Shown here: piece by piece, positions 1,968 through 16,964 of the stretch
Layout of the letters: each line of letters begins with the position of its first letter
Numbering within the stretch: the stretch's first letter is position 1
NCBI GenBank assembly: GCA_022646745.1
Contig: CP060262.1
Location: 3,660,001-3,692,000 of the forward strand
DNA length: 32,000 nt
Direction: 5' to 3'
From: Planctomycetales bacterium
GTDB taxonomy: Bacteria; 4484-113; JAFGCY01
Notes under the pieces: model-generated
Databases searched by the model: none
What the model was told of the DNA's origin: nothing
The model's input: the letters and a program-made list of their open reading frames with translations, nothing else
Made by a program: the position numbers and the translations under genes

Positions 1968-3593
1968 TCAGAACAGGAAGCTCCACTCCACAACGTAGTA
2001 GTCATGGTCGGCCTTGAAGTCCGGCACACCGTATCCGAAGGCATTGTGCATCTTGTCCATGATGTAGTTCACGCCGACGAGGCAGTTCGGGGCCCACATG
2101 TAGTCCCAGCGCACGTTGAGCGTGTTGCGGTTGAGCAGCGGGAACTGTGCACCTTCGCGCATCAGGTTGGCACCCATCTGGCGGTAGTGGCCATACAGGC
2201 TCCAGTCGCCGCACTCCTTGCGCCAGGTGCCCCACATCGCGCCGATCAGCAGGCCGTAGTCGTCGCTCGGCTCAGTGATGATCGGGCTGGCCAGTTGCTG
2301 GTTGACAAGTGCGATGTTGTCAGCGGCGTCGCTGTCAATCGCCCACAGGTATTCACCGAAGATGTTCAGCGGACGGTCCCAGACACACTCCCATGTGTAT
2401 TCCAGGCCGACCTTGCCCATGCAGTACTTGCTGGAGAATCGGTCATCGCTGGTGCGCACGCCATCGCCGTTGAAGTCCCATAGGCCGCCGTTCTCCAGCA
2501 GGCCGTTACCCCAGAACCAGTACTCCGGCAGCTCCCCCACGTTGTCATAGGAGTACATGCCGACCCAGGCGTTGAGGCCCTCCACGAGGAAGTCGTCATG
2601 CTTCAGTTCCGTGGCGAAGTAGTAGGTGTCATCACCGAAGAACTGCTCACCGTTCTGCTCGACGAGCACGCTGGCAACGCTGGTGAGCTGGAAGTCATCA
2701 TTGAAGTGATAGGCCAGTCCCAGTCCCTCGAGGTAGAAGTTGTCAGTCATGTATCCCTCGGTCGGGATGTATGACAGGTGTGGGAAGATACCGGCGTAGA
2801 TGTCAAGCTTGGGCTTGCAGGCGTTGGTTGTGGTGCATTCCTCGCAGCAGCCGCACTTGTCCTTGCAGGACGTGGTCTGCTCGTTATACCAGCCGAACCA
2901 GCCCGGACTGTACTTCACATAGGCGCGGTCCAGGTAGATGTCCGGGGACTTGCCATCCTTGCTGCCAAGGTCGTAGGGCAGTGTGAAGATGTTGGTGCCG
3001 TTGTTGGTTGACAGGCGGAAGCCGACCTCCACGCAGTCGCTGATCTTCTGGTTGTAACCCAGCTTGAACATGATGCGCTGGCGGAAGCGCTGGCTGTCGG
3101 CACGGTCATCGGCCTGCCAGCGGTAGCGGAATTCACCGCGCCAGGCCGGACCTGGCTTCAGGCCGGCCACCTTGTCCTCCAGCGAACCGATGCGGTTGGT
3201 GTTGTCCGCCACCGCGCCTTCGAGGTCACTGACCTGGGACTGCAGCGTGTTGATGCTGTTGCCAAGTTCATCGGTGCGAGCATTGATCAGGGCAAGCTGG
3301 TCACTGAACTCAGTGCGCAGGGACTCGGCCATCACCTGGATGTTCTCCGGGCTGCCCTCGCCAACGGTGTCCAGCAGGCGGGCTATCGCCTGTGCGAACT
3401 CATAGCGGGTCAGCGTGCGGTCTCCCTTGAAGAAGCCGTCCGGATAACCCTCAATCACGCCTCGGCTTGTCAGGTAATCGAGCGCGTTGTAGGCCCAGTG
3501 CTCCGTGGAGACGTCATCGTAGGCATCGCCCGCCCAGGCGGTGCCTGCAGAAAGGATCGCTGCTGCCAGCAGCGTTGCCAGAAATACCCTCAT
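1968..3593 (-). CDS. SLH-domain outer-membrane porin (OmpM/Slp-like: SLH domain, coiled coil, beta-barrel)
   Basis: Start trimmed to the ATG at 3593, preceded by AGAGGA, giving signal peptide MRVFLATLLAAAILSAGTAWA. An SLH motif follows (HWAYNALDYLTSRGVIEGYPDGFFKGDRTLTRYEFAQAIARLL). Next is a heptad-like segment (ALINARTDELGNSINTLQSQVSDLEGAVADNTNRIGSLEDKV). The long remainder is rich in aromatic/Gly alternation and ends in ...YYVVEWSFLF, a typical C-terminal Phe for a beta-barrel. Confidence 0.8.
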   Translation of the reverse strand: MRVFLATLLAAAILSAGTAWAGDAYDDVSTEHWAYNALDYLTSRGVIEGYPDGFFKGDRTLTRYEFAQAIARLLDTVGEGSPENIQVMAESLRTEFSDQLALINARTDELGNSINTLQSQVSDLEGAVADNTNRIGSLEDKVAGLKPGPAWRGEFRYRWQADDRADSQRFRQRIMFKLGYNQKISDCVEVGFRLSTNNGTNIFTLPYDLGSKDGKSPDIYLDRAYVKYSPGWFGWYNEQTTSCKDKCGCCEECTTTNACKPKLDIYAGIFPHLSYIPTEGYMTDNFYLEGLGLAYHFNDDFQLTSVASVLVEQNGEQFFGDDTYYFATELKHDDFLVEGLNAWVGMYSYDNVGELPEYWFWGNGLLENGGLWDFNGDGVRTSDDRFSSKYCMGKVGLEYTWECVWDRPLNIFGEYLWAIDSDAADNIALVNQQLASPIITEPSDDYGLLIGAMWGTWRKECGDWSLYGHYRQMGANLMREGAQFPLLNRNTLNVRWDYMWAPNCLVGVNYIMDKMHNAFGYGVPDFKADHDYYVVEWSFLF

Positions 3594-3776
3594 TCCTCTT
3601 TCCCGTAATACGGATTTGCGGATCGGAAGGGCCGGCGATGCAGCAGCATCCCTGCATCTCATCCACTCCCAGCCATTCCTGAAACCCGGCTCCCAGGCCC
3701 GGTAATCCACGGGAGGATTCTAGCACTCGAAGTTCAAAAACTAAATAATGGATTTATCTGAGTATATTGAAGTTGA

Positions 3777-4637: not shown

Positions 4638-7600
4638 TCAGTCCTTATCGGGCCATTCAGGGGCAGCCTGCTCGATGCGGGTCTTGTTGTCATCCGCCAG
4701 ACGCGCCCGACCGCCAATCATCTTCAGCATGCGTGTGTCAATGCTGCGGCTGCGCTTGATTGCGATCACGCGGTCGCGATAGGCACCTGAATGTCCGGCA
4801 TCCAGCTCCAGTGCCATGCTGCAGTATGCAGCTGCCTGCTCATAGTTGCGGGCGCGCAGCAGTTCGTGCCCGAGGCGGGCGTACAGCTCGGCATCGCGGG
4901 CACCGGCATCCACCGCACGGCGCAGCAGCGGCAGGATCTCCTTGTGCTTGCGCTGCTGCTCGTAGATCCGCGCCTTCTCGAGGTAGCTGCTGGCCAGCTT
5001 GCTGTTCAGCTCAATCGCCCGCTCGAAGCAGCTCAAGGCGTAACTGGCCAGGCCCTTGCGCACGTAGGCCACGCCCAGCTGGTGGTGAATGATTGCGAAA
5101 TTGGGGTTGATCTCGAGTGCCTGCTGGAACTGCTCAATGGCCTCATCCAGCTTGCCGTCGTTCAGGTATGTGTCACCCTGCGCGAGGAAGTTGCGCGCCA
5201 GCTGGCCTTTCTTTGAGTGGCTGATGCTCTCATCTGCGAACACGTTGACATTGCCAATGCTCAGCAATACAACGCTGATGGTGCCCTCCAGGCGACGGCG
5301 GATGGCGTCTCCACGGATCAGATCCACGGTCTGGGCCGGATCGCTGGAGCTGGTTGCCAGCTCCTTGATCTCGCTGATGGAGAGCGACTTGCGCAGGCTC
5401 GGACTGAGCAGGATCAGCTGGTCGCCATCCTGCAGTCGTCGCTTGAGCATCTGCAGCCTTGCCCGCTCACCGAAGCCGATGCGCTCGAACACCTCGTCTG
5501 ACAGGGCCTTGCTTTCATCGCCGATCACCTGCTCATCCGGGATCGTCCATTTGTCCTCATTGATGTCAACCAGCTCACCCTTGCTGAGGATCATCACCTG
5601 CGCCTCGCCGCAGTGCTGCAGGTAGAGCGTGTTCTCCTGCACCACTGCCACTGCAGCACTGATGCCCATCTTGCGGGTCTTGGACTGGCCGAAGGCATCA
5701 CGGTAGACCTTCTGGTTGAGGTTCTCCATCACGCCAGTGATGAATTCCTCTGGGCTGTTCTTCTGGAGCAGAGCGAAGTCACGGCTCACTCCGCCAGGAT
5801 GGAACATCAGTTCGCGCAGGTATCCGAGGGCCTTGGTAGCACTCTTGGCGGCGTCTCCCAGCTCCGGACCTTCGCCCACCAGCAGTGCCACCGCACCACG
5901 TGCACGGTTATTGACAGCCGGCAGGCGGATCGCCAGCGTCTCCTCGCTCTTCTCACGGGCGTTCTTGCCGATCATCGACAGTTCGGCGAAGTCGAAGAAC
6001 AGGTTGGGGATCTCCACCTGCTCCTTCTTGTCATAGCCCAGCAGGCGGCTGAGGTCGTCGCGCAGCTCGGCTACGGTCTGGTAGCGCGCCAGCGGCTGCT
6101 TCTCAAGCATCCGGAGCAGTATGTCCTTCACTTCGCTGCTGATCAGGGCCGGTTCGACGCGGGTGGCGGCGGGCACACCAAGGTGGTCGTGGCGGATCTC
6201 GTCCTCGATCTTGAAGCTGAATGGCGCGTGGCCGACCAGCATCTCGAAGAACAGCACCCCCATCTGGTAGATGTCAGTGCGCACGTCGCAATCGACGTCA
6301 CGGATGAACTCAGGCGTTAGGTATTCAGCACCGTTGAAGTTCAGGTTGCCATGGCGCATCAGGAAATCGGCAACCAGGGTGTCGCCAAGCTTCACGGTGC
6401 GCAGGTCGGATGTCAGGAAGACATTGCTGGGCTTGATGCCACCGTGGTAGTGGATCTTGCTGTACTCCAGCGCCTCAAGGGACTTGCAGAGCTGGAACAC
6501 GATGCGGCCCGCGTCGCTGATCGGCAGGGTGCCACGCTTGATCAGCAGCTGCTCCAGGCTGAGCAGGCCGGCTTCCATCGCGATGTAGCCATTCTCAAAA
6601 TGAACGCCGACATCGAAGACATTCAGCAGGTTTTTATGGTGGATGTTCGTCAGGGTGCGGAAACGGGTGTGGAATACCTCGGTGTATTCCTTGTGCTTGC
6701 GCAGGTCAATCAGCTTGACGACGCAGTGCTCCTGGTCCACCGCACTCTTGCGGTCATCCAGCAGTGAGCGCTTCTCCTCCTCGATGCCCATTTCATCCTT
6801 GCGGGTATCAATCGCGCGGTAGATAGAGGAAATGCGGCCCTTGGCAATCTCTTCCTTGAGCTTGAAGCGGCCGTTGATCAGGGTGTCCAGCACGAATGTG
6901 CGGAAGGCCACGCCGCTGTCCTGCTCGCCTCCGAGCTGCAGCACGTCATCGAGCGCCTTCTGGAAGCTCTCGTAGCGATCCTCCAGTGTCGGGCTGAGCA
7001 GGCGGTACAGCAGCTCCTGGATCGGCAGGGGCAGGTGCTCCTGCTCAGCAAGCCGCTTGCGCAGCTCATCGGGATCATTGCGGTCTCCGGCGGGCAGCAC
7101 GTCCCAGCTGCGCCTGGCAGTGGCCAGTTCAAGGATGATCAGGCCCAGCGCATACATGTCAATCTGGGAGTCCTCCAGCCCGCGGTCCATCAGTTCATAG
7201 GGCGGGAAGTAGGCCAGCAGGTGGCTGCCCTCATCGGTCTTGGCCACATCGCCGGCCATGGACTTCAGCGGATAGCCGAAGAAGCCCAGCCGTACATCGC
7301 TTTCCTCAAGCGAGATGCGGATGTTGTCCGGGTGCATCATGCCGTGGAAATGCACGTCGTTTGCGTCGGCAAACACCAGCGCCCGCAGCAGGCTGCGCAT
7401 GATGCTCAGCAGTTCGGGGGACTTGAGCGCTGACAGGTTGGAATAGCTCGAAAGCGGCTTGCCGAAATCCGGCAGCACCAGGTAGGCGCGGTCCTCAAAG
7501 CGGCCCCAGGCCAGCGGCGGCAACACATCCTCATGGTTCTTCTGTGCGAGGATGATGTTGACGCGCTTGAGCTCCTCAAGCTGCTCCGGTTCAAGCATCT

Positions 7601-7748
7601 CCTCGTTAAAGAGGAGGCAGAACACCGCTTCGTGGCTTTCCTTATTGAAGCCGATGTATGTGTCCCACAACACCGAATGCGCCTTGTGGTTGTTGAGCGT
7701 GAAGCGATCTACGGTGAAATTTTGCCGTTCGGCCATCTGTTCCTGCAT
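4638..7748 (-). CDS. Multidomain signalling protein: two Ser/Thr-kinase-like domains with degenerate catalytic motifs, a PP2C-like domain with degenerate metal ligands, and C-terminal TPR repeats
   Basis: Kinase-like domain 1 (about aa 10-275): HGMMHPDN replaces HRDxKPxN, LGFFG replaces DFG, and there is no VAIK Lys or Gly loop, but FPPYE and DMYALGLIILEL are retained. Kinase-like domain 2 (about aa 285-545): VVK Lys345 is present, HGGIKPSN replaces HRDxKPxN, LGDTL replaces DFG, and TPE and DIYQMGVLFFEML are retained. PP2C-like region (about aa 590-835): GKNAREKSEE, VGEGPELGDAAKSA (instead of DGMGG), KMGIS, CGEAQ (instead of GDSR), LILLSPSL (instead of LLCSDGL) and GTISVVLL (instead of DNiT). 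TPR region about aa 850-990 (DEAIEQFQQALEINPNFAIIHHQLGVAY...). Confidence 0.75.
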   Translation of the reverse strand: MQEQMAERQNFTVDRFTLNNHKAHSVLWDTYIGFNKESHEAVFCLLFNEEMLEPEQLEELKRVNIILAQKNHEDVLPPLAWGRFEDRAYLVLPDFGKPLSSYSNLSALKSPELLSIMRSLLRALVFADANDVHFHGMMHPDNIRISLEESDVRLGFFGYPLKSMAGDVAKTDEGSHLLAYFPPYELMDRGLEDSQIDMYALGLIILELATARRSWDVLPAGDRNDPDELRKRLAEQEHLPLPIQELLYRLLSPTLEDRYESFQKALDDVLQLGGEQDSGVAFRTFVLDTLINGRFKLKEEIAKGRISSIYRAIDTRKDEMGIEEEKRSLLDDRKSAVDQEHCVVKLIDLRKHKEYTEVFHTRFRTLTNIHHKNLLNVFDVGVHFENGYIAMEAGLLSLEQLLIKRGTLPISDAGRIVFQLCKSLEALEYSKIHYHGGIKPSNVFLTSDLRTVKLGDTLVADFLMRHGNLNFNGAEYLTPEFIRDVDCDVRTDIYQMGVLFFEMLVGHAPFSFKIEDEIRHDHLGVPAATRVEPALISSEVKDILLRMLEKQPLARYQTVAELRDDLSRLLGYDKKEQVEIPNLFFDFAELSMIGKNAREKSEETLAIRLPAVNNRARGAVALLVGEGPELGDAAKSATKALGYLRELMFHPGGVSRDFALLQKNSPEEFITGVMENLNQKVYRDAFGQSKTRKMGISAAVAVVQENTLYLQHCGEAQVMILSKGELVDINEDKWTIPDEQVIGDESKALSDEVFERIGFGERARLQMLKRRLQDGDQLILLSPSLRKSLSISEIKELATSSSDPAQTVDLIRGDAIRRRLEGTISVVLLSIGNVNVFADESISHSKKGQLARNFLAQGDTYLNDGKLDEAIEQFQQALEINPNFAIIHHQLGVAYVRKGLASYALSCFERAIELNSKLASSYLEKARIYEQQRKHKEILPLLRRAVDAGARDAELYARLGHELLRARNYEQAAAYCSMALELDAGHSGAYRDRVIAIKRSRSIDTRMLKMIGGRARLADDNKTRIEQAAPEWPDKD

Positions 7749-7872
7749 ACCTAACCGCCCTCGTCTTAGATACTCATTCGACTGCTAGAGTCTACAAAAA
7801 GTTGCTTGGTTTTGCCGGAGTATTCTCAATACCCCCGCAATCTACATGACGGATACAGTCAGCCGGCGGTTA

Positions 7873-9099
7873 TCACTCGTGGCGCAATGCTTCCATCGGC
7901 TGCAGGGCTGCAGCCTGGCTGGCGGGCCAGACCCCGAAGAACAGGCCCGTCCCCACACTCATGGATACGGCCAGGAACACGATCAGGGGCGTCACCTGTG
8001 GTTCAGGGAAGTTGATGTCGCCTGGCAGCTTTGACAGGGCAGTACAGATGGTGAAGGCCAGCATGCTGCCGACTGCCCCGCCGAACACTGTCATCGCCAT
8101 TGCTTCCGCAAGGAATTGCCCCATGATCTGCCGGCTGGTGGCGCCAAGCGCCTTGCGCAGGCCGATCTCGGGCGTTCGTTCACGCACATTGAAGATCATG
8201 ATGTTCATCACCCCGATACCGCCGATGAACAGCGCCAGTGAACCCATCGTTACCAGCAGGTTGCCAATCTCCTTGATCTCCTGCTCGGCTTCCTTCTTCC
8301 ACTCCAGCCTGGTCCAGATCCTGAGCGGCTGCTCACGGTCCTCTGCCTCGGGGTCAACGGGCAGGCGTGGATGGCGGCTGTGCACCAGTTCGCGGATCTG
8401 GCTGACTGCCAGGTTCACATGGTCCATGCTGTGGGCGGATGCATCATAAGTCAGCGTGCCGTCCATTCCCAGCCGCTCCGCACCGGTGAAGTACGGCACG
8501 ACGATGAACTCATTCTGTCCCCAGGCATTGCGGTGCTCAAGGATGCCGACGACGCGGAAGCGCCGGCCGTTTAGCCGGATCATCTGCCCGAGCGGTGGGG
8601 CGTTGTAGAACAGCTTCTCCACCATGCCGACGGCCAGCACGCAGACCGGCTCCCGCAGAAGGTTGTGCTCGCGGCTTAGCGGCTCTCCGGTCTCGATCTC
8701 GTTCACCGGGATGTTGAACCAGCCCTCGTCCACTCCGTAGATCGTCATCTGACCGGCATCCATCTCGCCGAATTTCACCCTGACCTCACCATCGATGAAT
8801 GGGCTGATTGCATCGACCGCAGAGCACTGATCCTTTATCGCCTCGCCATCAGCCAGTGTCAGCTTCTCGGAACGCGGGATGCGCGTGGCACTGTTGTCAT
8901 GGTTGATGTAGAAGCCCATGTCCGTCACGCCGAAATCACTGAAGCGGCTGATGATGTCCGCGCGCACCCCCATGCTGATGGACAGCATGGTGATCACGCT
9001 CATCACGCCGATGATGATCCCAAGCGTTGTCAGGAATGTCCTGAAGCGGTTGCTGGACAATCCACGGAATGCCAGCACCAGAGTCTGCCAGTAGAGCAA
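7873..9099 (-). CDS. ABC transporter permease, MacB/LolC-type (MacB periplasmic domain plus FtsX domain), paralogue 3 of 3
   Basis: TTG start. The N-terminus MLYWQTLVLAFRGLSSNRFRTFLTTLGIIIGV is the typical TM1. A periplasmic domain of about 220 aa follows, then the FtsX signature ERTPEIGLRKALGATSRQIMGQFLAEA and three C-terminal TM segments. No nucleotide-binding domain. Confidence 0.85.
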   Translation of the reverse strand: MLYWQTLVLAFRGLSSNRFRTFLTTLGIIIGVMSVITMLSISMGVRADIISRFSDFGVTDMGFYINHDNSATRIPRSEKLTLADGEAIKDQCSAVDAISPFIDGEVRVKFGEMDAGQMTIYGVDEGWFNIPVNEIETGEPLSREHNLLREPVCVLAVGMVEKLFYNAPPLGQMIRLNGRRFRVVGILEHRNAWGQNEFIVVPYFTGAERLGMDGTLTYDASAHSMDHVNLAVSQIRELVHSRHPRLPVDPEAEDREQPLRIWTRLEWKKEAEQEIKEIGNLLVTMGSLALFIGGIGVMNIMIFNVRERTPEIGLRKALGATSRQIMGQFLAEAMAMTVFGGAVGSMLAFTICTALSKLPGDINFPEPQVTPLIVFLAVSMSVGTGLFFGVWPASQAAALQPMEALRHE

Positions 9100-9188
9100 G
9101 GCCTGAAGTCCTGAGTTGGTTTCCCGCCGCTTCCCGACGGCTGGGGCTTAGGACGCAGACTGGCAGGGAAAAGTATTCGTTTACCGGA

Positions 9189-10418
9189 TTATTCGTAGCG
9201 CAGGGCTTCGATCGGGTTGAGGCGTGCCGCCTGGCTGGCGGGCCAGACACCGAAGAACACGCCGGTCATGAAGGTGACGGCGATGGCGATGATGATCGCA
9301 TCCTGTGTGATCAACGGAGGTGGGAATCGTGCTTCTTCGGGCAGCCTGGCTATCACGCGGCACAGGATGAAGCTCAGTCCTGTTCCGATCAGGCCTCCCC
9401 CGATGCAGATCATCATCGATTCAGCAATGAACTGGGCCAGGATCGACTGGCTGTTGGCACCGAGCGCCTTGCGCAGTCCGATCTCGCGCGTGCGCTCCTT
9501 CACACTGAACAGCATGATGTTCATCAATCCGATGCCACCGATGAACAGTGACAGGCTGCCCATCACGAGCAGCAGTACGGTGATTTGCTTGGACTCAGCC
9601 TTGGCCCGCTCGCGCCATTCATTAAGGTTCCAGACCCGGATCGGCTTCTCGAACTCCTCAGCATCGGCCACCACCGGGATGCGCGGATGGTTCTTGTAGA
9701 TCGTCTCCTCGACCTGCGTCACAGCCAATGGTACGTGCCTCAGTGTCTGGGCCGCCATCTGGATTCCGAGTGACTGGTTCTGGCGCGGGATCCACTCATG
9801 CACAGTAAAGAATGGCAGCAGCACCAGGCCGTCGATGTCCTCCTCGCCGGTGCTTTCCAGCACGCCGATCACCCGGAAGTTCCTGCCGCCGACGCGAATG
9901 ATGCGGCCGAGTGCCTGGTCAAGGAAGAACAGGTTCTCCTTCGTAGTTGCGCCAAGCACGCAGACGCGCTCGCGCAGCAGGCTGCTTTCATCCGGGAAGC
10001 GCTCGCCCTCGGTGAAGTTGATCTTGTAGATGTCGAATATCTCGGGGTCGACTCCCATGCAGTTGACTTCGGTCAGTTCCTTGCTGCCCTGGCGCACCGG
10101 TGCCTGGAAGTCGATCACTGCGCTGACATGCTTCACGGCACCGCATTCACGGCGGATGCTGTCGCGGTCCTCCAGGGTCAGCTGCTCATTCGGCGGGATC
10201 TTCGCCTTGGAGCGCCAGTGGTTGATGTAGACGCCCATGCGGGTGGCACCGAGCTTGTCAAAGTCGTCAATGATCTTCTGGTTCAGGCCCTGGGTGACCG
10301 CCACCAGCGTGATCACGCTGGCAACGCCGACGATGATGCCGAACATTGTCAGGAACGTGCGGAAGCGGTTGGCCCACATGCCACGCACCGCAACCGTGAT
10401 GATTTCCAAGATGAGCAT
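9189..10418 (-). CDS. ABC transporter permease, MacB/LolC-type, paralogue 2 of 3
   Basis: ATG start. Same architecture: MLILEIITVAVRGMWANRFRTFLTMFGIIVGV ... ERTREIGLRKALGANSQSILAQFIAES. It starts 30 nt downstream of the previous permease gene. Confidence 0.85.
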   Translation of the reverse strand: MLILEIITVAVRGMWANRFRTFLTMFGIIVGVASVITLVAVTQGLNQKIIDDFDKLGATRMGVYINHWRSKAKIPPNEQLTLEDRDSIRRECGAVKHVSAVIDFQAPVRQGSKELTEVNCMGVDPEIFDIYKINFTEGERFPDESSLLRERVCVLGATTKENLFFLDQALGRIIRVGGRNFRVIGVLESTGEEDIDGLVLLPFFTVHEWIPRQNQSLGIQMAAQTLRHVPLAVTQVEETIYKNHPRIPVVADAEEFEKPIRVWNLNEWRERAKAESKQITVLLLVMGSLSLFIGGIGLMNIMLFSVKERTREIGLRKALGANSQSILAQFIAESMMICIGGGLIGTGLSFILCRVIARLPEEARFPPPLITQDAIIIAIAVTFMTGVFFGVWPASQAARLNPIEALRYE

Positions 10419-10448
10419 TTTCCAAGCTGTACCGGTCCGCCGGTGACC

Positions 10449-11687
10449 CTACTGGAAGCGCAGCGCCCGGATTGGATCCTGGCCGGCTGCCCTCATAGCA
10501 GGATAGACGCCGAAGAACAGGCCGATTGCTACGGTTACACTCGCAGCAACGAAAATTGCCATTGGCGTGACGATCGGGGGCGGGATCTGGCTTTCCTCAG
10601 GCAGGCGTGCGATCATCCGGCAGGCCAGCACAGCGATGCCAGTCCCTATCAGGCCTCCCAGCATGCAGATCACGATCGACTCCAGCAGGAACTGGTTCAT
10701 CACACTGGAGAATGTGGCACCCAGCGCCTTGCGCAGGCCGATCTCACGGGTGCGTTCCTGCACAGTCACGAGCATGATGTTCATCACGCCGACACCGCCG
10801 ATCAGGAGCGAGGTGAAGCCGACCACCCCGAGGAAGATCGTCAGGGTACGGGCGGATTCCTCACGCCGGGCCTGCCACTCCGCGGCATTCCAGAAGCGGA
10901 ACGGTTCGGTCTGGCCCTTGGCCTCATCCGGCAGCGGCACGCGGGGATGACGTTCGTGCAGCAGACGGCGCACCTCCTCCTCTGCGCGCTCGCTCATGGA
11001 GGGGTCATGCAGGCGGAAGTTCAGTGAGCCGATGCCGTTAACGCCGCTGACACGGTCCATCGCCGTGCCGATGGGGATCAGCACCCGTTCGTCATGCGAT
11101 TCCCAGCGACTGTTGCCGACGGGCTTGTATGTGCCGACCACCTTGAAGCGCTTGCCGTCAATGGTGATGAACTCATCCACCGCCGGAGCACTGAAGAAGA
11201 GTGCTTCCTTCGTCATGCTGGCCAGAACGCAGACACGTTCACGCATCAGGTTCTCGTCATCTGTGAAGAAACGTCCCTGGTCTATCTGGTAGTTGGAAAT
11301 TTCAGTCCAGTCAGGCTCGATGGCAATCACGCTGTAGGCGTCAAGCTCGATCGTATTGCGCGAGACATTGGCTTCGAGTTCCTGGATCGCGCTGACCTTG
11401 TCAATGCTAGGACAGGAGGCGCGGATCGCGGCGGTGTCATCGAGGGTGAAGCTCTCAGTCTGCGGAATCGGCACGCCACTGCTCCAGCGGTCCATCCAGC
11501 AGCCCATCCGGTTGGCGCCCCAGCGCTCGAAATCCTTCAGCATGTCCTCGCGGGTGCCGGCACTGTATGCCAAAAGCACGATCACGCTGCCCACACCGAC
11601 GATGATGCCGAGCATCGTCAGCCCGGTACGCAGCTTGTTGGCGACAATGCCGCGGATGGCTACAACGATGATCTCCCAGAACAGCAA
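10449..11687 (-). CDS. ABC transporter permease, MacB/LolC-type, paralogue 1 of 3
   Basis: TTG start, 10 nt after the stop of the adaptor gene. MLFWEIIVVAIRGIVANKLRTGLTMLGIIVGV ... ERTREIGLRKALGATFSSVMNQFLLES. Confidence 0.85.
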   Translation of the reverse strand: MLFWEIIVVAIRGIVANKLRTGLTMLGIIVGVGSVIVLLAYSAGTREDMLKDFERWGANRMGCWMDRWSSGVPIPQTESFTLDDTAAIRASCPSIDKVSAIQELEANVSRNTIELDAYSVIAIEPDWTEISNYQIDQGRFFTDDENLMRERVCVLASMTKEALFFSAPAVDEFITIDGKRFKVVGTYKPVGNSRWESHDERVLIPIGTAMDRVSGVNGIGSLNFRLHDPSMSERAEEEVRRLLHERHPRVPLPDEAKGQTEPFRFWNAAEWQARREESARTLTIFLGVVGFTSLLIGGVGVMNIMLVTVQERTREIGLRKALGATFSSVMNQFLLESIVICMLGGLIGTGIAVLACRMIARLPEESQIPPPIVTPMAIFVAASVTVAIGLFFGVYPAMRAAGQDPIRALRFQ

Positions 11688-11697
11688 TTGCTACCGC

Positions 11698-13155
11698 CTA
11701 TTCAATGGTTCTCTCAAGCACCACGGTGTCACCTTCCTCGAGCCCGTTCGTCACCTCATAACGCAGGCCGTCGAAGAAGCCCAGCTCGATGTCAACACGC
11801 TCGCGAACGTCGGTGCTGTCGGCATCAGCGGACACCTCGACGTAGGGCTTGCCTTCCTCATACTGGATGTACTGTGCCGGCAGGATCAGCACTGCGGGAT
11901 GGTCCTCCAGCACGATCTCAACGTTCGCCGTCATGTTCGGATACAGGCGCGGTTTCTGCGGCTCAGGCTTTGCCTCTTCCGCAGGCTTTTCCTCTCCTGC
12001 TGCATCACCGGCGGGCGGGCCTCCCTGGCCTCCACCTCCGCCGCCGGGCCGGCGCCCTGCACCGCCCCCGCCACCGCCACCACCGCGACGGCCACCCCAG
12101 TTGCCTCCTCCACCGCCGCCCATGCGGCCGCCGAAGCCTCCGCCTTCCATCGTGGCGCTGTTGAGGTCAATTGCGATGTCAACCGGGAAGCGGGTGCCGG
12201 TATTGCCACCGCCGGTCTCGCCCTGTGGGTAGATCTTCTTGATCTCGCCCTGCCAGACCCAGCCGGAATAGGTGTCAAACGTGATCCGGCAGGGGCCACC
12301 TACCTTGATGGTGCCGAGGTCTGTCTCCTCAATGCGGGCCTTGACGTAGATCGTTGACAGGTCGGCAACCGTGGCAATCACGGTGCCGGATGTGTTACCG
12401 GATGTCGCACTGGCAACCGCCGAGCCGATCTCAACCGGACGGGTCAGCACGGTGCCACTTTGCGGGCTGGTGATGGTGGTGTAGCCAAGTTCTTCCTTGA
12501 GTCGGTCCGTATCGGCCTGACTGGCTTCCACGTCCGCTTCGGCAATGGCGATGTCGTCAACGTCACCACCTTCAAGACCCATCTGCAGCTGGCGCTGTGA
12601 CTCTTCATAACGCAGCTTGGCCTGGTCCAGGCTCTGTTCCGCGGACTGCATCTCCGCATCCGTCGCATACTTCGGTTCATGCTCATACAGGCCGAGGATG
12701 CGGTCATAGTCGCTCTGGGCATTTTCAAAGCTGAGACGGGCGCTTTCGACATCATTCTCCAGCCGGCTGCGGGCCTCGACCGTCAGCTTGCGCTTCGTCT
12801 TCTTCAGCTGTGCCTGCGAACGCAGCAGGCGGGCCTCGCTTTCCTTGATGCTCTGGACGATCTGCTCCTTGTCCAGCTCGGCAATCGGCGTACCCATTGT
12901 CACCTCGTCACCTGGTTCAACGAAGATCGCTTCGACCAGGCCGCTGGCCTTGCTCTTCACCTCGACAAGTACGGAAGGTTCAACGACTCCGTCCGCCGGC
13001 ACGATCTTGCGCAGGTCACCGCGCGTAACTGCCGTTGTCTGGATGTCGGTTTCGACCTCCTCGGGGGCAAACAGCGGTGAGATGAACTTCCAGGCCAGGA
13101 AGCCAAGGCCGCCGATCACGACGAGGTTGATAGCAATTCGGATGAAGGTTTTCAT
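11698..13155 (-). CDS. Periplasmic adaptor (HlyD/MacA-type membrane fusion protein) with an internal Gly/Arg-rich low-complexity insertion
   Basis: N-terminal TM anchor (IAINLVVIGGLGFLAW). Lipoyl-like segments (GLVEAIFVEPGDEVTMGTPIAELD ... ITSPQSGTVL). A long coiled-coil hairpin (EARLLRSQAQLKK...RYEESQRQLQ). Beta-barrel segment (YVKARIEETDLGTIKVGGPCRITFD). The insertion is GGGFGGRMGGGGGGNWGGRRGGGGGGGGAGRRPGGGGGGQGGPPAGDAAGEEKPAEEAKPEPQKP. Confidence 0.8.
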   Translation of the reverse strand: MKTFIRIAINLVVIGGLGFLAWKFISPLFAPEEVETDIQTTAVTRGDLRKIVPADGVVEPSVLVEVKSKASGLVEAIFVEPGDEVTMGTPIAELDKEQIVQSIKESEARLLRSQAQLKKTKRKLTVEARSRLENDVESARLSFENAQSDYDRILGLYEHEPKYATDAEMQSAEQSLDQAKLRYEESQRQLQMGLEGGDVDDIAIAEADVEASQADTDRLKEELGYTTITSPQSGTVLTRPVEIGSAVASATSGNTSGTVIATVADLSTIYVKARIEETDLGTIKVGGPCRITFDTYSGWVWQGEIKKIYPQGETGGGNTGTRFPVDIAIDLNSATMEGGGFGGRMGGGGGGNWGGRRGGGGGGGGAGRRPGGGGGGQGGPPAGDAAGEEKPAEEAKPEPQKPRLYPNMTANVEIVLEDHPAVLILPAQYIQYEEGKPYVEVSADADSTDVRERVDIELGFFDGLRYEVTNGLEEGDTVVLERTIE

Positions 13156-13228
13156 GTCTGTTTTGTTCTCTGTTACCTGTCAGCGGTCTCGAGAGTGGAG
13201 GCCAGATGCCACTCAGCCGATGCCGCCA

Positions 13229-13257
13229 TTGACATCGGCTGATCCCGGGGCTATACT
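13229..13257 (+). promoter_or_regulatory. Sigma-70-type promoter for tRNA-Ile: TTGACA-N17-TATACT
   Basis: TTGACA at 13229-13234, a 17-nt spacer, then TATACT at 13252-13257. The hexamer ends 13 nt before the mature tRNA 5' end. Confidence 0.6.
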
Positions 13258-13270
13258 TCTCTTCCTCATT

Positions 13271-13347
13271 GGGTCGCTAGCTCAGTTGGTTAGAGCGCAT
13301 CCCTGATAAGGATGAGGTCGCTGGTTCGATTCCAGCGCGACCCACCA
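13271..13347 (+). tRNA. tRNA-Ile (anticodon GAU), CCA encoded
   Basis: Manual cloverleaf: acceptor GGGTCGC/GCGACCC, D arm GCTC-AGTTGGTTA-GAGC, anticodon arm CATCC-CTGATAA-GGATG (anticodon GAT), variable loop AGGTC, T arm GCTGG-TTCGATT-CCAGC, discriminator A, then CCA. It stands alone with no rRNA nearby. Confidence 0.93.
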
Positions 13348-13741: not shown

Positions 13742-14650
13742 ATGTCAGGCTTCTACAAACGGCCGAAACTCTCTGAACTCGACAAGCCGCTCGGCAAGCG
13801 GGTGCGGCTGCACCGCATGCTGTACGAACACGGCCCCGGCAACGGCACGCTCCTGATCCTCCCGCTGGACCAGGGCATTGAGCATGGCCCGATGGACTTC
13901 TTCAGCCATGAGGACTGCAAGTTCCCGGCCTACCAGTTCGAGCTGGCCCGCCGCGGGGGCTTCAGCGCGATTGCCGTGCATATCGGGCTGGCCCGCAACT
14001 ACCTGCGTGAAGTGGCAGGCGACGTGCCGCTGGTGCTGAAGATCAACGGCAAGTCCAACATCCCTGACAACGAGCCATTCTCCCCGCTGACAGCCACTGT
14101 GGAGGATGCCGTCCATCTCGGCGCTGACGGCATCGGCTATACGTTGTATGTCGGCAGCGGGATGCAGGAGGAGGAGATCCGCCAGCTGATGGAGGTGCGC
14201 CAGGACTGCGACCGCTTTGGCATGCCGCTGATCATCTGGGCATACCCGCGTGGTGAGGCGATCGAGCAGAAGGGTGGCCGCGACAGCTTCTACGCTGTTG
14301 ACTACGGGGCTCGCCTCGCCGAGGAATTCGGTGCGGACATCGTCAAGCTGCACATCCCGAAGATCAACCCGGCAACGGATGCCATGTCCCCTGCCCCCTA
14401 CAACAACATGCAGGTTGACCAGCTCGGTGCCTTCCGCCAGATCGTGCAGAGTGCCGGCCGGGCCTTCGTGCTGGTCAGTGGCGGCAGCAAGCTCGGAGAT
14501 GACGACATGCTGGCCAAGGTCCGCATGAGCTTCGAAGGTGGCGCCACCGGCCTGATCTTTGGCCGCAACATGTGGCAGCGCCCGATGGAGCAGGCACTGG
14601 AGATCACCGAGAAGGTGAAGGACATCATGCGCGAGTTCGGCGACCGTTGA
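13742..14650 (+). CDS. Class I fructose-bisphosphate aldolase, DhnA/FbaB (archaeal-type, DeoC/LacD superfamily) family
   Basis: Trimmed to the ATG at 13742, which sits 5 nt after GGAGGAG. Family-like segments: LILPLDQGIEHGP, VLKINGKSN, GADGIGYTLYVGS, IIWAYPRG, ADIVKLHIP (candidate Schiff-base Lys), VLVSGGSK and GLIFGRNMWQ. Confidence 0.7.
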   Translation: MSGFYKRPKLSELDKPLGKRVRLHRMLYEHGPGNGTLLILPLDQGIEHGPMDFFSHEDCKFPAYQFELARRGGFSAIAVHIGLARNYLREVAGDVPLVLKINGKSNIPDNEPFSPLTATVEDAVHLGADGIGYTLYVGSGMQEEEIRQLMEVRQDCDRFGMPLIIWAYPRGEAIEQKGGRDSFYAVDYGARLAEEFGADIVKLHIPKINPATDAMSPAPYNNMQVDQLGAFRQIVQSAGRAFVLVSGGSKLGDDDMLAKVRMSFEGGATGLIFGRNMWQRPMEQALEITEKVKDIMREFGDR

Positions 14651-14692
14651 GAATGCCGGGAGAGCTGATCCCGGACAGCACATGAATTGAAG

Positions 14693-14720
14693 AGGCTCCC
14701 TGCGGGGAGCCTTTTTCATT
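14693..14720 (+). terminator. Intrinsic terminator of the aldolase gene
   Basis: AGGCTCCC-TGCG-GGGAGCCT (8-bp stem) followed by TTTTTCATTT. Confidence 0.8.
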
Positions 14721-14737
14721 TGTGGCGACGTCCAGGT

Positions 14738-14767
14738 AAAAAAAACCCCCGGCCCATGGGCCGGGGG
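14738..14767 (-). terminator. Intrinsic terminator of the pilin-like gene cluster
   Basis: On the minus strand, CCCCCGGCCCATGGGCCGGGGG (GC-rich stem of about 9-10 bp) is followed by T8. A second hairpin, CTGCAGC-GAAT-GCTGCAG, lies at 14784-14801 between the stop codon (14815) and this terminator. Confidence 0.85.
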
Positions 14768-14814
14768 AGTTTCAGGCACTGTCCTGCAGCGAATGCTGCA
14801 GTCCTCAGCGGTGA

Positions 14815-15837
14815 TTAGACCGCATCGTTGACATCGTCGGTCATGGACTTCTTGTCGATACCAGAGTCCAGGACGATCACGACGCCATCCTTGAGGGTGT
14901 CAGAACCACCATCATTGAAGTCCAGGGACACGGCGTTGCCGGTGTTGCACAGGCACTCGACGTCCCAGCCGAAGATCGGCGTGGCGCAGTCAATGACGCA
15001 GGAGTTCGTACGGAAACGACCCTTGAAGTCACCGTTACGGTTGTACACGTCCTGACCCTTGGTGCGGACGGAACCATAGCCGGAGAGGCTGTAGCCGACC
15101 GGGTCACCGGAACCGGTGATCGGGAAGGCGATGTTGGTGCCGGCGCGCGGGTAGTAGCTGAAGTTACCGGTCAGGAACTTGTTACCACTCGGGTCGGTCC
15201 AGTCGCCACCGACGTTGCTGGGCTCCTTGAACATGTCACCGGCGTAGTCGTACGGCGGGTTGTTGTAGATGTGGTGGACGAATGCGTCACCCATGAAGGA
15301 CTGAACAGTGATCAGTCCTGCGGGGCCGAAGCACTCCCACATCTTGTCGCTCTGGCGACCACCGACGTAGCGCTGGTCGGGATAGTTACCACCAGCAGAC
15401 CACGGGAAGTGATGGATGAAGGGCAGGATGGTGTCGGTTTTGTTCTTGACGAACGGGTTGCCGGGGTAGGAAGGCATGTAGGCCTCCATCACCAGCGGGT
15501 CACCGACATCCTCTTCCGCGGCACGCCACTCGTTGCGGCGGGTCGGGTTGGAGATATCATCGACGCTCAGGTTGTCCTGATCGTCGACCCAGCTCTGCCA
15601 GACGACATCCTGGTCAGTCCAGTCACCACCGTTGATGATCAGCGGGTAGATGTTACCGGCTGAGTCAACGGAATAACGCTCGAGTGCAAGCTGAATAGCG
15701 TGCAGGTTCTGCTTAACCTCTGCTTCCTTCGCCTTATCCTTGATGCGGATGAAGTTCGGAAGGGCAATCGCCACGAGGATACCGATGATCACGATGACCA
15801 CCAGCAGCTCGATCAGAGTGAATCCTCTCTTTGTCAT
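14815..15837 (-). CDS. Large pilin-like protein P1: prepilin-type N-terminal cleavage/methylation motif, GspG-like helix and a C-terminal domain of about 290 aa
   Basis: ATG at 15837, 5 nt after GGAGGA. MTKRGFTLIELLVVIVIIGILVAIALPNFIRIKDKAKEAEVKQNLHAIQLALERY is a class III signal peptide (G|FTLIE with Glu+5). It shares the motifs YMPSYPGNPF, GYSLSGYGSVRTKGQD and a C-terminal DG..V.VLDSGIDKK with P2-P4, but it is the most divergent copy. Confidence 0.85.
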   Translation of the reverse strand: MTKRGFTLIELLVVIVIIGILVAIALPNFIRIKDKAKEAEVKQNLHAIQLALERYSVDSAGNIYPLIINGGDWTDQDVVWQSWVDDQDNLSVDDISNPTRRNEWRAAEEDVGDPLVMEAYMPSYPGNPFVKNKTDTILPFIHHFPWSAGGNYPDQRYVGGRQSDKMWECFGPAGLITVQSFMGDAFVHHIYNNPPYDYAGDMFKEPSNVGGDWTDPSGNKFLTGNFSYYPRAGTNIAFPITGSGDPVGYSLSGYGSVRTKGQDVYNRNGDFKGRFRTNSCVIDCATPIFGWDVECLCNTGNAVSLDFNDGGSDTLKDGVVIVLDSGIDKKSMTDDVNDAV

Positions 15838-15899
15838 AGCATCCTCCATAGATGATCCGAAACCAATTGACTTGACATCTAACCCGAAATCAAGGCAGG

Positions 15900-16964
15900 T
15901 CAGCCGGCAAGACTGTTGTCGCTGCCGACCTTCTTGTCCATGCCAGATCCGAGATGGATGATGAGGAAGTCAGGGATACCATCCGAGAAGGGACGCTCAT
16001 CATAGTCATCGACCTGGGTGGTGTTACCCCACATACCCGAGGTGGTCCAGGGGTTGCGCTCCTGGCCAAGGGTGAGGTAACCGGTACGCCAGTACTGGGC
16101 ACCAACCGAGTCCTCCATGCTGTCGTCAAGGTCCTGGCCCTTCGTGCGCTCGGAACCGAGGGCAGTCAGGTCGTAACCGGCGACATCAAGGCTTGCCACG
16201 TTCTGGACGTCAGCGTTGCCAAGCGGCGGAGTCATCTCCGGCGGCATGGAAGTGGCGTCGCTGTGATAAGGCACCTGATACAGGAAGTGGCCGTGGTTGG
16301 TGGTCTCATCGCTCCAACGAGCGTGATAGGCGAAGTTACCCTGATACTCAGTGCGGACCGGCTCGTAATCCGGGGCGCTGAAGAACATGTACTGCGGGCC
16401 CTCAGAGAACCACGCGATGTTCCACATCAGGTCTCCATCGTAACCGCCGAAGCAGGCATGATCCTGGTAGTTGGTGGACAGAGCGTCGATACCAAACACC
16501 TTGCTGGAGCTGCCGACCTGGAAGGGGTTACGGGGGAACTTCGGCATGTAACCCTCGTACTCAAGGGTGTCGCCGAAGCCGGAATCAATGTCAGTCTGCT
16601 GGGTCAGGTTACCCCACGCAGTGTCATTGTAATCCCATGTGTCAGTGTTCAGCCAGAACATGTCGAACGGCTGCACAATCTGGCCGGTCGTGTAGGCACG
16701 CCACGTATGCGAGCCGTTCACGCCGTTGATGGTACCGATGTTGAACAGGGACTCACCGCCGTACAGGTAGTAGGGGTAAATACCGTCATAATCGGTAGCG
16801 TAGCGCTCAATCGCCAGCTGGATCGCATGAAGGTTCTGCTTAACCTCCGCCTCACGAGCCTTATCCTTGATCTTGATAAAGTTCGGGAGCGCGATAGCGA
16901 CCAGGATGCCGATAATCACGACTACGACTAGAAGTTCGATCAGCGTGAAGCCTTTAGTCTTCAA
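15900..16964 (-). CDS. Large pilin-like protein P2 (354 aa)
   Basis: TTG start, 8 nt after AGGAGG. MKTKGFTLIELLVVVVIIGILVAIALPNFIKIKDKAREAEVKQNLHAIQLAIERYATD. Conserved blocks: YPYYLYGGE, IVQPFD, GYMPKFPRNPF, CFGG, VAGYDLTALGSERTKGQD and ERPFSDGIPDFLIIHLGSGMDKK. Confidence 0.85.
   Translation of the reverse strand: MKTKGFTLIELLVVVVIIGILVAIALPNFIKIKDKAREAEVKQNLHAIQLAIERYATDYDGIYPYYLYGGESLFNIGTINGVNGSHTWRAYTTGQIVQPFDMFWLNTDTWDYNDTAWGNLTQQTDIDSGFGDTLEYEGYMPKFPRNPFQVGSSSKVFGIDALSTNYQDHACFGGYDGDLMWNIAWFSEGPQYMFFSAPDYEPVRTEYQGNFAYHARWSDETTNHGHFLYQVPYHSDATSMPPEMTPPLGNADVQNVASLDVAGYDLTALGSERTKGQDLDDSMEDSVGAQYWRTGYLTLGQERNPWTTSGMWGNTTQVDDYDERPFSDGIPDFLIIHLGSGMDKKVGSDNSLAG

Follow-up and report, generated by a model that had tools for sequence, protein, structure and literature searches.

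Introduction

MacB-type pumps carry antibiotics, peptides, toxins and envelope lipids out of the cell; to our knowledge, nearly all work on them has dealt with self-contained operons. In MacAB-TolC a homodimeric MacB carries its nucleotide-binding domain (NBD) fused to the permease and works with a membrane-anchored MacA adaptor and a TolC-family duct. DevBCA-HgdD of Anabaena, YknWXYZ of B. subtilis and Spr0693-0695 of S. pneumoniae have a separate NBD and permease plus an adaptor, and LolCDE has two different unfused MacB-fold permeases (LolC and LolE) and a separate ATPase. Unfused NBDs, heterodimeric permeases and shared remote outer-membrane factors (OMFs) have already been described in DevBCA-HgdD, LolCDE and YknXYZ (PMC5985334, PMC8277102), and in Anabaena a single OMF, HgdD, which is encoded elsewhere, serves at least seven DevBCA paralogs (PMC8277102). 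One orphan NBD can also power several separate membrane modules, as do MsmK, MsiK and MsmX in type I sugar importers and MceG in Mce systems (PMC7658222, PMC4519317, PMC9947336). Here we analyze a 32,000-nucleotide stretch (hereafter the window) of the genome of a Planctomycetales bacterium (contig CP060262.1, positions 3660001-3692000), in which one operon encodes a HlyD/MacA-type adaptor and three MacB-type permeases, A, B and C (Table 1).

We consider it probable that these four genes encode the adaptor and permeases of a split MacAB-TolC-like exporter (ATP-binding cassette, ABC, of type VII), whose motor would be an orphan MacB-type NBD encoded 2.9 Mb away, whose duct is likely the TolC-like outer-membrane efflux protein (OEP) encoded beside that NBD, and whose NBD would most likely serve nine permeases in all. 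Such a pump would share with MacAB-TolC the permease architecture, the membrane-anchored MacA-type adaptor, the TolC-family duct and an NBD of the MacB kind. It differs in that the NBD is unfused and encoded with the duct at a distant locus, in having three different permeases rather than one homodimeric MacB, and in its 485 aa adaptor, which has a low-complexity insert and scores under the MacA equivalog cut-off. In the DevBCA, YknWXYZ and Spr0693-0695 systems (a permease alignment to chain 5xu1_M gave E 9e-40) the NBD is co-operonic with the permease, whereas here the remote shared part would be the NBD plus the OMF. LolCDE, unlike the present genes, is without adaptor or OMF, and the known multitask NBDs serve importers or Mce lipid transporters. 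ADOP (TIGR03434) is an FtsX-type permease family whose name presumably marks it as "orphan", with no adjacent ATPase; its members are internally duplicated, whereas the window permeases are single units and score 106-125 bits on its model (cut-off 622).

Results and Discussion

The window operon has no local ATPase or duct

The first-pass annotation of the window described an adaptor plus three unfused MacB-type permeases separated by gaps of 10, 30 and 89 nt, with neither an ATPase nor an outer-membrane duct at hand. This description holds. The gene coordinates and gaps are exact, Pfam finds both MacB_PCD and FtsX in each permease (E values of 1e-16 to 1e-36), and the window gave no ABC_tran match in any open reading frame (ORF) of at least 150 aa, no Walker A pattern [AG]xxxxGK[ST] in ORFs of at least 100 aa, and no match to the TolC-like OEP family PF02321. 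A six-frame PF00005 search of the whole genome also gave no match inside positions 3660001-3692000. Within the 32-kb window permeases A-C have no cognate NBD, whether fused or co-operonic.

The permeases are clear members of the MacB fold. The MacB_PCD and FtsX matches are 2.5e-34 and 2.1e-20 for A, 5.9e-36 and 4.1e-19 for B, and 1.8e-33 and 1.4e-16 for C. Hydropathy places the first transmembrane segment (TM1) at residues ~22-41 and the three C-terminal TM segments at ~280-395, the MacB layout in which the large periplasmic domain (MacB_PCD) separates TM1 from TM2 and the FtsX domain is C-terminal. On the permease half of MacB (NCBIfam) the three proteins score 172-204 bits (A has the 204), and A aligns over its full length with the MacB structures 5nik, 5lil and 5gko, for example with E 3e-50 against residues 254-645 of E. 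coli MacB chain 5nik_J. All three genes are intact, and comparison with same-genus orthologs gives nonsynonymous to synonymous substitution ratios (dN/dS) of 0.09-0.17 across the operon (adaptor 0.13, A 0.09, B 0.16 and C 0.17), which indicates purifying selection on all four.

An orphan NBD and a TolC-like OEP are encoded together 2.9 Mb away

The genome is one 4.11-Mb contig, and it was searched in six frames for FtsX-domain and ABC ATPase genes. There are 12 of the former and 33 of the latter, and only three of the 33 are NBDs of the MacB/LolD/FtsE class: FtsE, which adjoins FtsX; a second NBD that lies in a complete adaptor-NBD-permease-permease operon at 1.655 Mb; and a third, the orphan, at 781 kb. 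The proposal that the ATPase is encoded elsewhere is thereby borne out to the extent that a MacB-type NBD does lie behind a TolC-like gene at a distance of 2.9 Mb. The orphan NBD gene begins 4 nt downstream of the OEP gene (one of four OEP genes in the genome, and the one directly upstream of this NBD), and no permease or adaptor was found near this cassette. For the NBD the scores are 275 bits against positions 1-234 of MacB and 234 bits against LolD, and inspection of its sequence shows intact Walker A, Q-loop, signature, Walker B and H-loop.

Nine MacB-type permeases at five loci are without an ATPase of their own, and they score 147-225 bits on MacB. All nine carry an NBD-facing motif, ERTREIG[LIV]R[KR]A[LV]GA, between TM2 and TM3, and a C-terminal motif, DP[IV]xALR[YF]E; neither occurs in the two permeases paired with an NBD of their own. 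From their position and the established MacB structures we take these motifs to be coupling helices. In permease A they read ERTREIGLRKALGA and DPIRALRFQ, and motifs of these two types are common to A, B, C and the six other orphan permeases, in which the coupling helix and the C-terminal helix are among the best-conserved segments. The other possibility raised by the first-pass annotation, that the ATPase is absent, is therefore unlikely, since the ATPase-coupling motifs are conserved in all three window permeases. The gene pattern of a shared NBD, namely one orphan NBD and several NBD-less permeases, is seen here and in relatives, and the split accounts for both the "ATPase-less" permease operons and the "permease-less" ATPase operon of this genome.

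NBDs of related complete operons match the orphan NBD best

Which of the three NBDs would the orphan permeases use? Outside the phylum, the permeases most closely related to A (33-38% identity) are encoded in complete operons, whose gene order is OEP-NBD-adaptor-permease in Gemmatimonadales, OEP-adaptor-NBD-permease in Selenomonadaceae and the L138 lineage, and NBD-permease in Chloroflexia. The NBDs of these operons match the orphan NBD best (58-67% identity, 265-329 bits), compared with 42-45% and about 190 bits for the second NBD and 36-42% for FtsE. Their adaptors have matches in the two adaptors that stand first in orphan-permease operons. Their OEPs have either no match among the OEPs of this genome or ~22-25% identity to one other than that of the cassette. 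The Gemmatimonadales operon (L136) is made of the same four families, and its order is the one obtained when the two halves found here are joined (OEP-NBD-adaptor-permease); identity is 58% between its NBD and the orphan NBD and 36% between its permease and permease A. It differs in being contiguous with a single permease, whereas here the cut falls between NBD and adaptor and the permease has been multiplied.

The split layout extends across the phylum

The lineage is a small uncultivated phylum with ~20 species genomes, and 12 relatives were inspected for the cassette. All 12 have the 292 aa protein-OEP-NBD cassette, none with a permease or adaptor gene closer than ~8 kb, and across the phylum the orphan NBD keeps 62-93% identity. 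No NBD accompanies the adaptor-permease loci, orthologous and paralogous, at 15 places in the relatives, and in two distant small genomes none of five MacB-type permeases has an ABC NBD within 5-6 kb (positive controls passed). A pattern scan of genome contigs with the 292 aa family, whose sensitivity is limited, placed the cassette at 10 loci, all in this lineage. The split layout, with motor and duct at one locus and permeases elsewhere, is found in every sampled genome of the phylum, and an adaptor with one to three permeases and no ATPase is the rule.

The arrangement had been called unusual, which is correct only against textbook E. coli operons; in this phylum it is the norm. It had also been asked whether it is a common, already described operon type: it is common in the lineage, but we found no published description. 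Literature searches turned up no report of an NBD shared by MacB-type (type VII) permeases and none of a MacB-class NBD that is encoded with an OMF apart from all its permeases; they gave only reviews of a general kind and the precedents from importers and Mce systems.

The third permease is a genus-level duplicate

Permease B shares 45% identity with C and 43% with A. Maximum-likelihood analysis unites B and C in one clade (support 100/99), and each has an ortholog in a same-genus genome. Permease C occurs only in that same-genus relative (G001), and sister genera have one or two permeases: three of them have an adaptor and two permeases, and one (G003, G006) has an adaptor, a 1197 aa secreted protein and one permease. 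With B and C as sisters and no more than two permeases in the sister genera, it follows that the second permease was duplicated in tandem at the genus level. The three-permease state is thus an ordinary genus-level duplication in a two-permease operon and not a special three-component design. Among A, B and C the periplasmic domains are 30-38% identical and the membrane domains 45-55%, and this faster periplasmic divergence fits diversified substrate or partner recognition.

The 1197 aa protein (L107:4336-7929 in G003, L108:4557-8150 in G006) has a lipoprotein-like signal peptide and is encoded between the adaptor and the single permease; it may be a pump substrate or an accessory protein.

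Proposed assembly and alternatives

The mechanism that we propose is borrowed step by step, by analogy, from MacAB-TolC (review PMC5985334). The 242 aa orphan NBD would be the motor: two copies of it would dock onto a dimer of permeases at their conserved coupling helices and, by binding and hydrolyzing ATP, would bring about mechanotransmission in the periplasmic domains. A hexameric adaptor would join the permeases to the TolC-like OEP, the likely exit duct. The same NBD would most likely serve all nine orphan permeases over the five loci, as a hub like the sugar-importer NBDs or MceG; such sharing is suggested by the gene census and the best-partner comparison. The ancestral operon would have held an adaptor and two different permeases, the second of which was duplicated in this genus to give B and C, with the periplasmic domains diverging fastest. 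Given this ancestral two-permease state, the analogy with LolC/E and the recurrence of two-permease operons, we favor an assembly into A-B and A-C heterodimers that would differ in substrate range. The most complete form of the idea, a hub-and-spoke type VII ABC system in which one NBD, co-transcribed with the duct, powers all nine MacB-type permeases including the adaptor-less ones, with A-B and A-C heterodimers, seems to us evenly poised between right and wrong.

From the comparisons above we infer the physical pairing of the two loci, the use of the cassette OEP, the sharing of the NBD, the stoichiometry, the substrate and the mechanism, and several points weigh against the split pump as proposed. 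The link between the two loci is drawn from sequence comparison. The genome has four OEP genes, so the cassette OEP is one candidate duct of four, and only its adjacency to the NBD singles it out, because the OEPs of outside operons are too diverged for ortholog assignment. The coupling motifs are generic to the MacB family and show dependence on an NBD but not which NBD it is. The choice of heterodimers over homodimers is predicted by analogy. Finally, one NBD for nine permeases needs regulated or competitive assembly, for which no type VII ABC precedent was found in the literature.

The best-partner comparison bears directly on the idea that the permeases use another motor, either the NBD of the complete 1.655-Mb operon or FtsE, which we judge improbable: the NBDs that are co-operonic with the closest outside permeases are far nearer to the orphan NBD. 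The NBDs do belong to the same broad class, and ABC modules of other families are known to engage in cross-talk, but both alternative NBDs lie next to permease partners of their own, the coupling motifs differ in the permeases of the complete operon, and in several relatives (G004, G007, G010, G012 and others) 3-5 orphan permeases persist although no second MacB-type NBD shows up at E<=1e-40. That the three proteins are permease-like scaffolds or sensors which have lost their motor and use no ATP would suit the absence of an NBD in cis and the syntenic kinase-like gene downstream. It is nevertheless very hard to credit, given the strong conservation of the coupling and C-terminal helices in the nine orphans, the existence of an intact and highly conserved orphan NBD of the matching class, and the purifying selection on all genes of the operon.

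Two further alternatives concern what the permeases form. Each might homodimerize as MacB does, which would give three parallel pumps with one adaptor. MacB and FtsX are homodimers (review PMC5985334), the genome has two solitary permease genes, and in G003 and G006 an A-like homodimer must be viable because the operon keeps a single permease there. We think this possible though doubtful, in that an adjacent pair of different permeases, as in LolC/LolE, recurs in three genera at the locus of this operon, at paralogous locus 2 and in the 1.50-Mb pair; this recurrence is not decisive. A Lol-like lipoprotein extractor, that is, a LolC/E-type pair plus an extra copy and not an efflux pump, is highly improbable. 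In its favor are the unfused, probably heteromeric permeases, the separate ATPase and the 234 bits of the orphan NBD on LolD, but A, B and C score only 34-51 bits on the lolCE model TIGR02212 (cut-off 362) and 30-39 on the LolC model NF008076 (cut-off 473), which leaves them outside both families, against the 172-204 bits on the MacB permease half. In addition, an adaptor heads the operon and an OEP gene adjoins the NBD, and a membrane-fusion adaptor and an OEP are marks of tripartite pumps, not of Lol.

If the split pump is real, a whole phylum keeps its motor and exit duct at one locus and its substrate-handling modules scattered, and type VII ABC systems can be modular like sugar importers and Mce systems. 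If one NBD is indeed the hub, specificity modules could be acquired, lost and duplicated with the motor left untouched, and it would be the first multitask NBD to be described for mechanotransmission ABC transporters, fixed across a candidate phylum.

The adaptor

The adaptor matches HlyD_D23 (3.8e-20), HlyD_3 and Biotin_lipoyl_2 in Pfam and exceeds the cut-off of the NCBIfam model TIGR01730 RND_mfp (122 bits, cut-off 94.9). Because it scores 96.6 bits on the MacA equivalog model NF008606, under the cut-off of 342, it is not an equivalog of E. coli MacA. Its N-terminus is hydrophobic, a membrane anchor of the MacA/HlyD/YknX type, and the domain set of such adaptors (lipoyl, alpha-hairpin, beta-barrel and membrane-proximal) follows it. 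Orthologs with 54-81% identity stand first in the same operon in seven relatives. Between the beta-barrel and the membrane-proximal domain, at residues ~335-395, lies a Gly/Arg/Pro-rich low-complexity insert (GGGFGGRMGGGGGGNWGGRRGGG...), which is kept as a feature in all orthologs of the adaptor family. It is missing from the L138 adaptor, and the longer Gemmatimonadales adaptor has a different, Gly-containing insert in the same region.

The 292 aa protein of the cassette

The polytopic 292 aa protein has no Pfam match. Its AlphaFold2 model is all-helical and confident (pLDDT 82), and comparison of the model with PDB folds gave no match at E<=0.001. A Yip1 protein stands beside the closest Anaerolineae NBD homolog, and B. 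subtilis YknW is, we assume, of the Yip1 family; a relationship of the 292 aa protein to YknW/Yip1 was rejected at the sensitivity used (hhalign probability 0.09, no Pfam match).

Anaerolineae have Yip1-adaptor-NBD cassettes. On two contigs (L133:3658-6756, L135:3673-6804) such cassettes, ordered Yip1 - YknX-like adaptor - NBD, encode an NBD that shares 65-66% identity with the orphan NBD and adjoin no permease gene, which is a different way to split a YknWXYZ-like system. The window adaptor is 24% identical to these NBD-adjacent adaptors, a value too low to inform orthology.

Gene organization and neighbors of the window operon

Features of the two loci are listed in Table 1. Values of GC3 (G+C at third codon positions) of 0.72-0.82 favor the four minus-strand frames over antisense ORFs, and the long plus-strand ORFs over the operon (e.g. 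9798-11027) were rejected as genes on their GC3 pattern. Promoter and terminator scans found nothing above shuffled expectation within the operon, and no terminator-like site was predicted in the gap at 7749-7872 between permease C and the kinase-like gene. The sole sigma-70-like match in the boundary region upstream of the adaptor is on the plus strand, facing the tRNA.

Table 1. Positions of the genes and regions discussed (window coordinates unless marked as genome)
Feature	Position	Strand	Remarks
HlyD/MacA-type adaptor	11698-13155	minus	485 aa ORF; first gene of operon
MacB-type permease A	10449-11687	minus	412 aa; 4 TM; periplasmic core domain; no NBD
MacB-type permease B	9189-10418	minus	409 aa; sister paralog of C
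MacB-type permease C	7873-9099	minus	408 aa; sister paralog of B
Kinase-like/TPR gene	4638-7748	minus	1036 aa; 124 nt downstream of permease C
Leader/promoter region	boundary region 13156-13347		115 nt between adaptor start and tRNA-Ile(GAT)
tRNA-Ile(GAT)	13271-13347	plus	ARAGORN; divergent from operon
Orphan MacB-type NBD	genome 781292-782017		242 aa; 2.9 Mb from window operon
TolC-like OEP	genome 782022-783623		533 aa; PF02321, 7.8e-30
Polytopic membrane protein	genome 783686-784564	minus	292 aa; precedes OEP-NBD pair; also L120:6001-6879
Orphan permease loci	window operon; genome 3.09 Mb; genome 1.50 Mb; two singletons		three permeases; paralogous adaptor + two; pair; single genes

The flanking genes are those that the first-pass annotation named, a tRNA upstream and a pseudokinase-like gene downstream. 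The latter matches Pkinase (3.5e-31) and TPR models in Pfam; it has two kinase-like domains, with HGM and HGG at the HRD position, and C-terminal TPR repeats. An ortholog lies 3' of the permeases in G001, G004, G005 and G007 (four genera). The gene is possibly co-transcribed with the permeases, and its product may be a conserved regulatory partner or just a syntenic neighbor. In G004, G007 and G005, which represent three sister genera, the second permease gene and the kinase-like gene are separated by an opposite-strand gene for a conserved secreted protein of ~340 aa (L106:7118-8143, L109:6945-7973 and L110:7217-8227, respectively); it has no counterpart in the window.

Elsewhere in the window, the minus strand has a tandem series of three paralogous ORFs (344-354 aa) at 13745-16964, two of the three with an N-terminal prepilin-type methylation motif (PF07963). 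At 1968-3710, also on the minus strand, is a gene for a 580 aa protein with an SLH domain and a Porin_5 segment, which may be an OmpM-like outer-membrane tether or porin.

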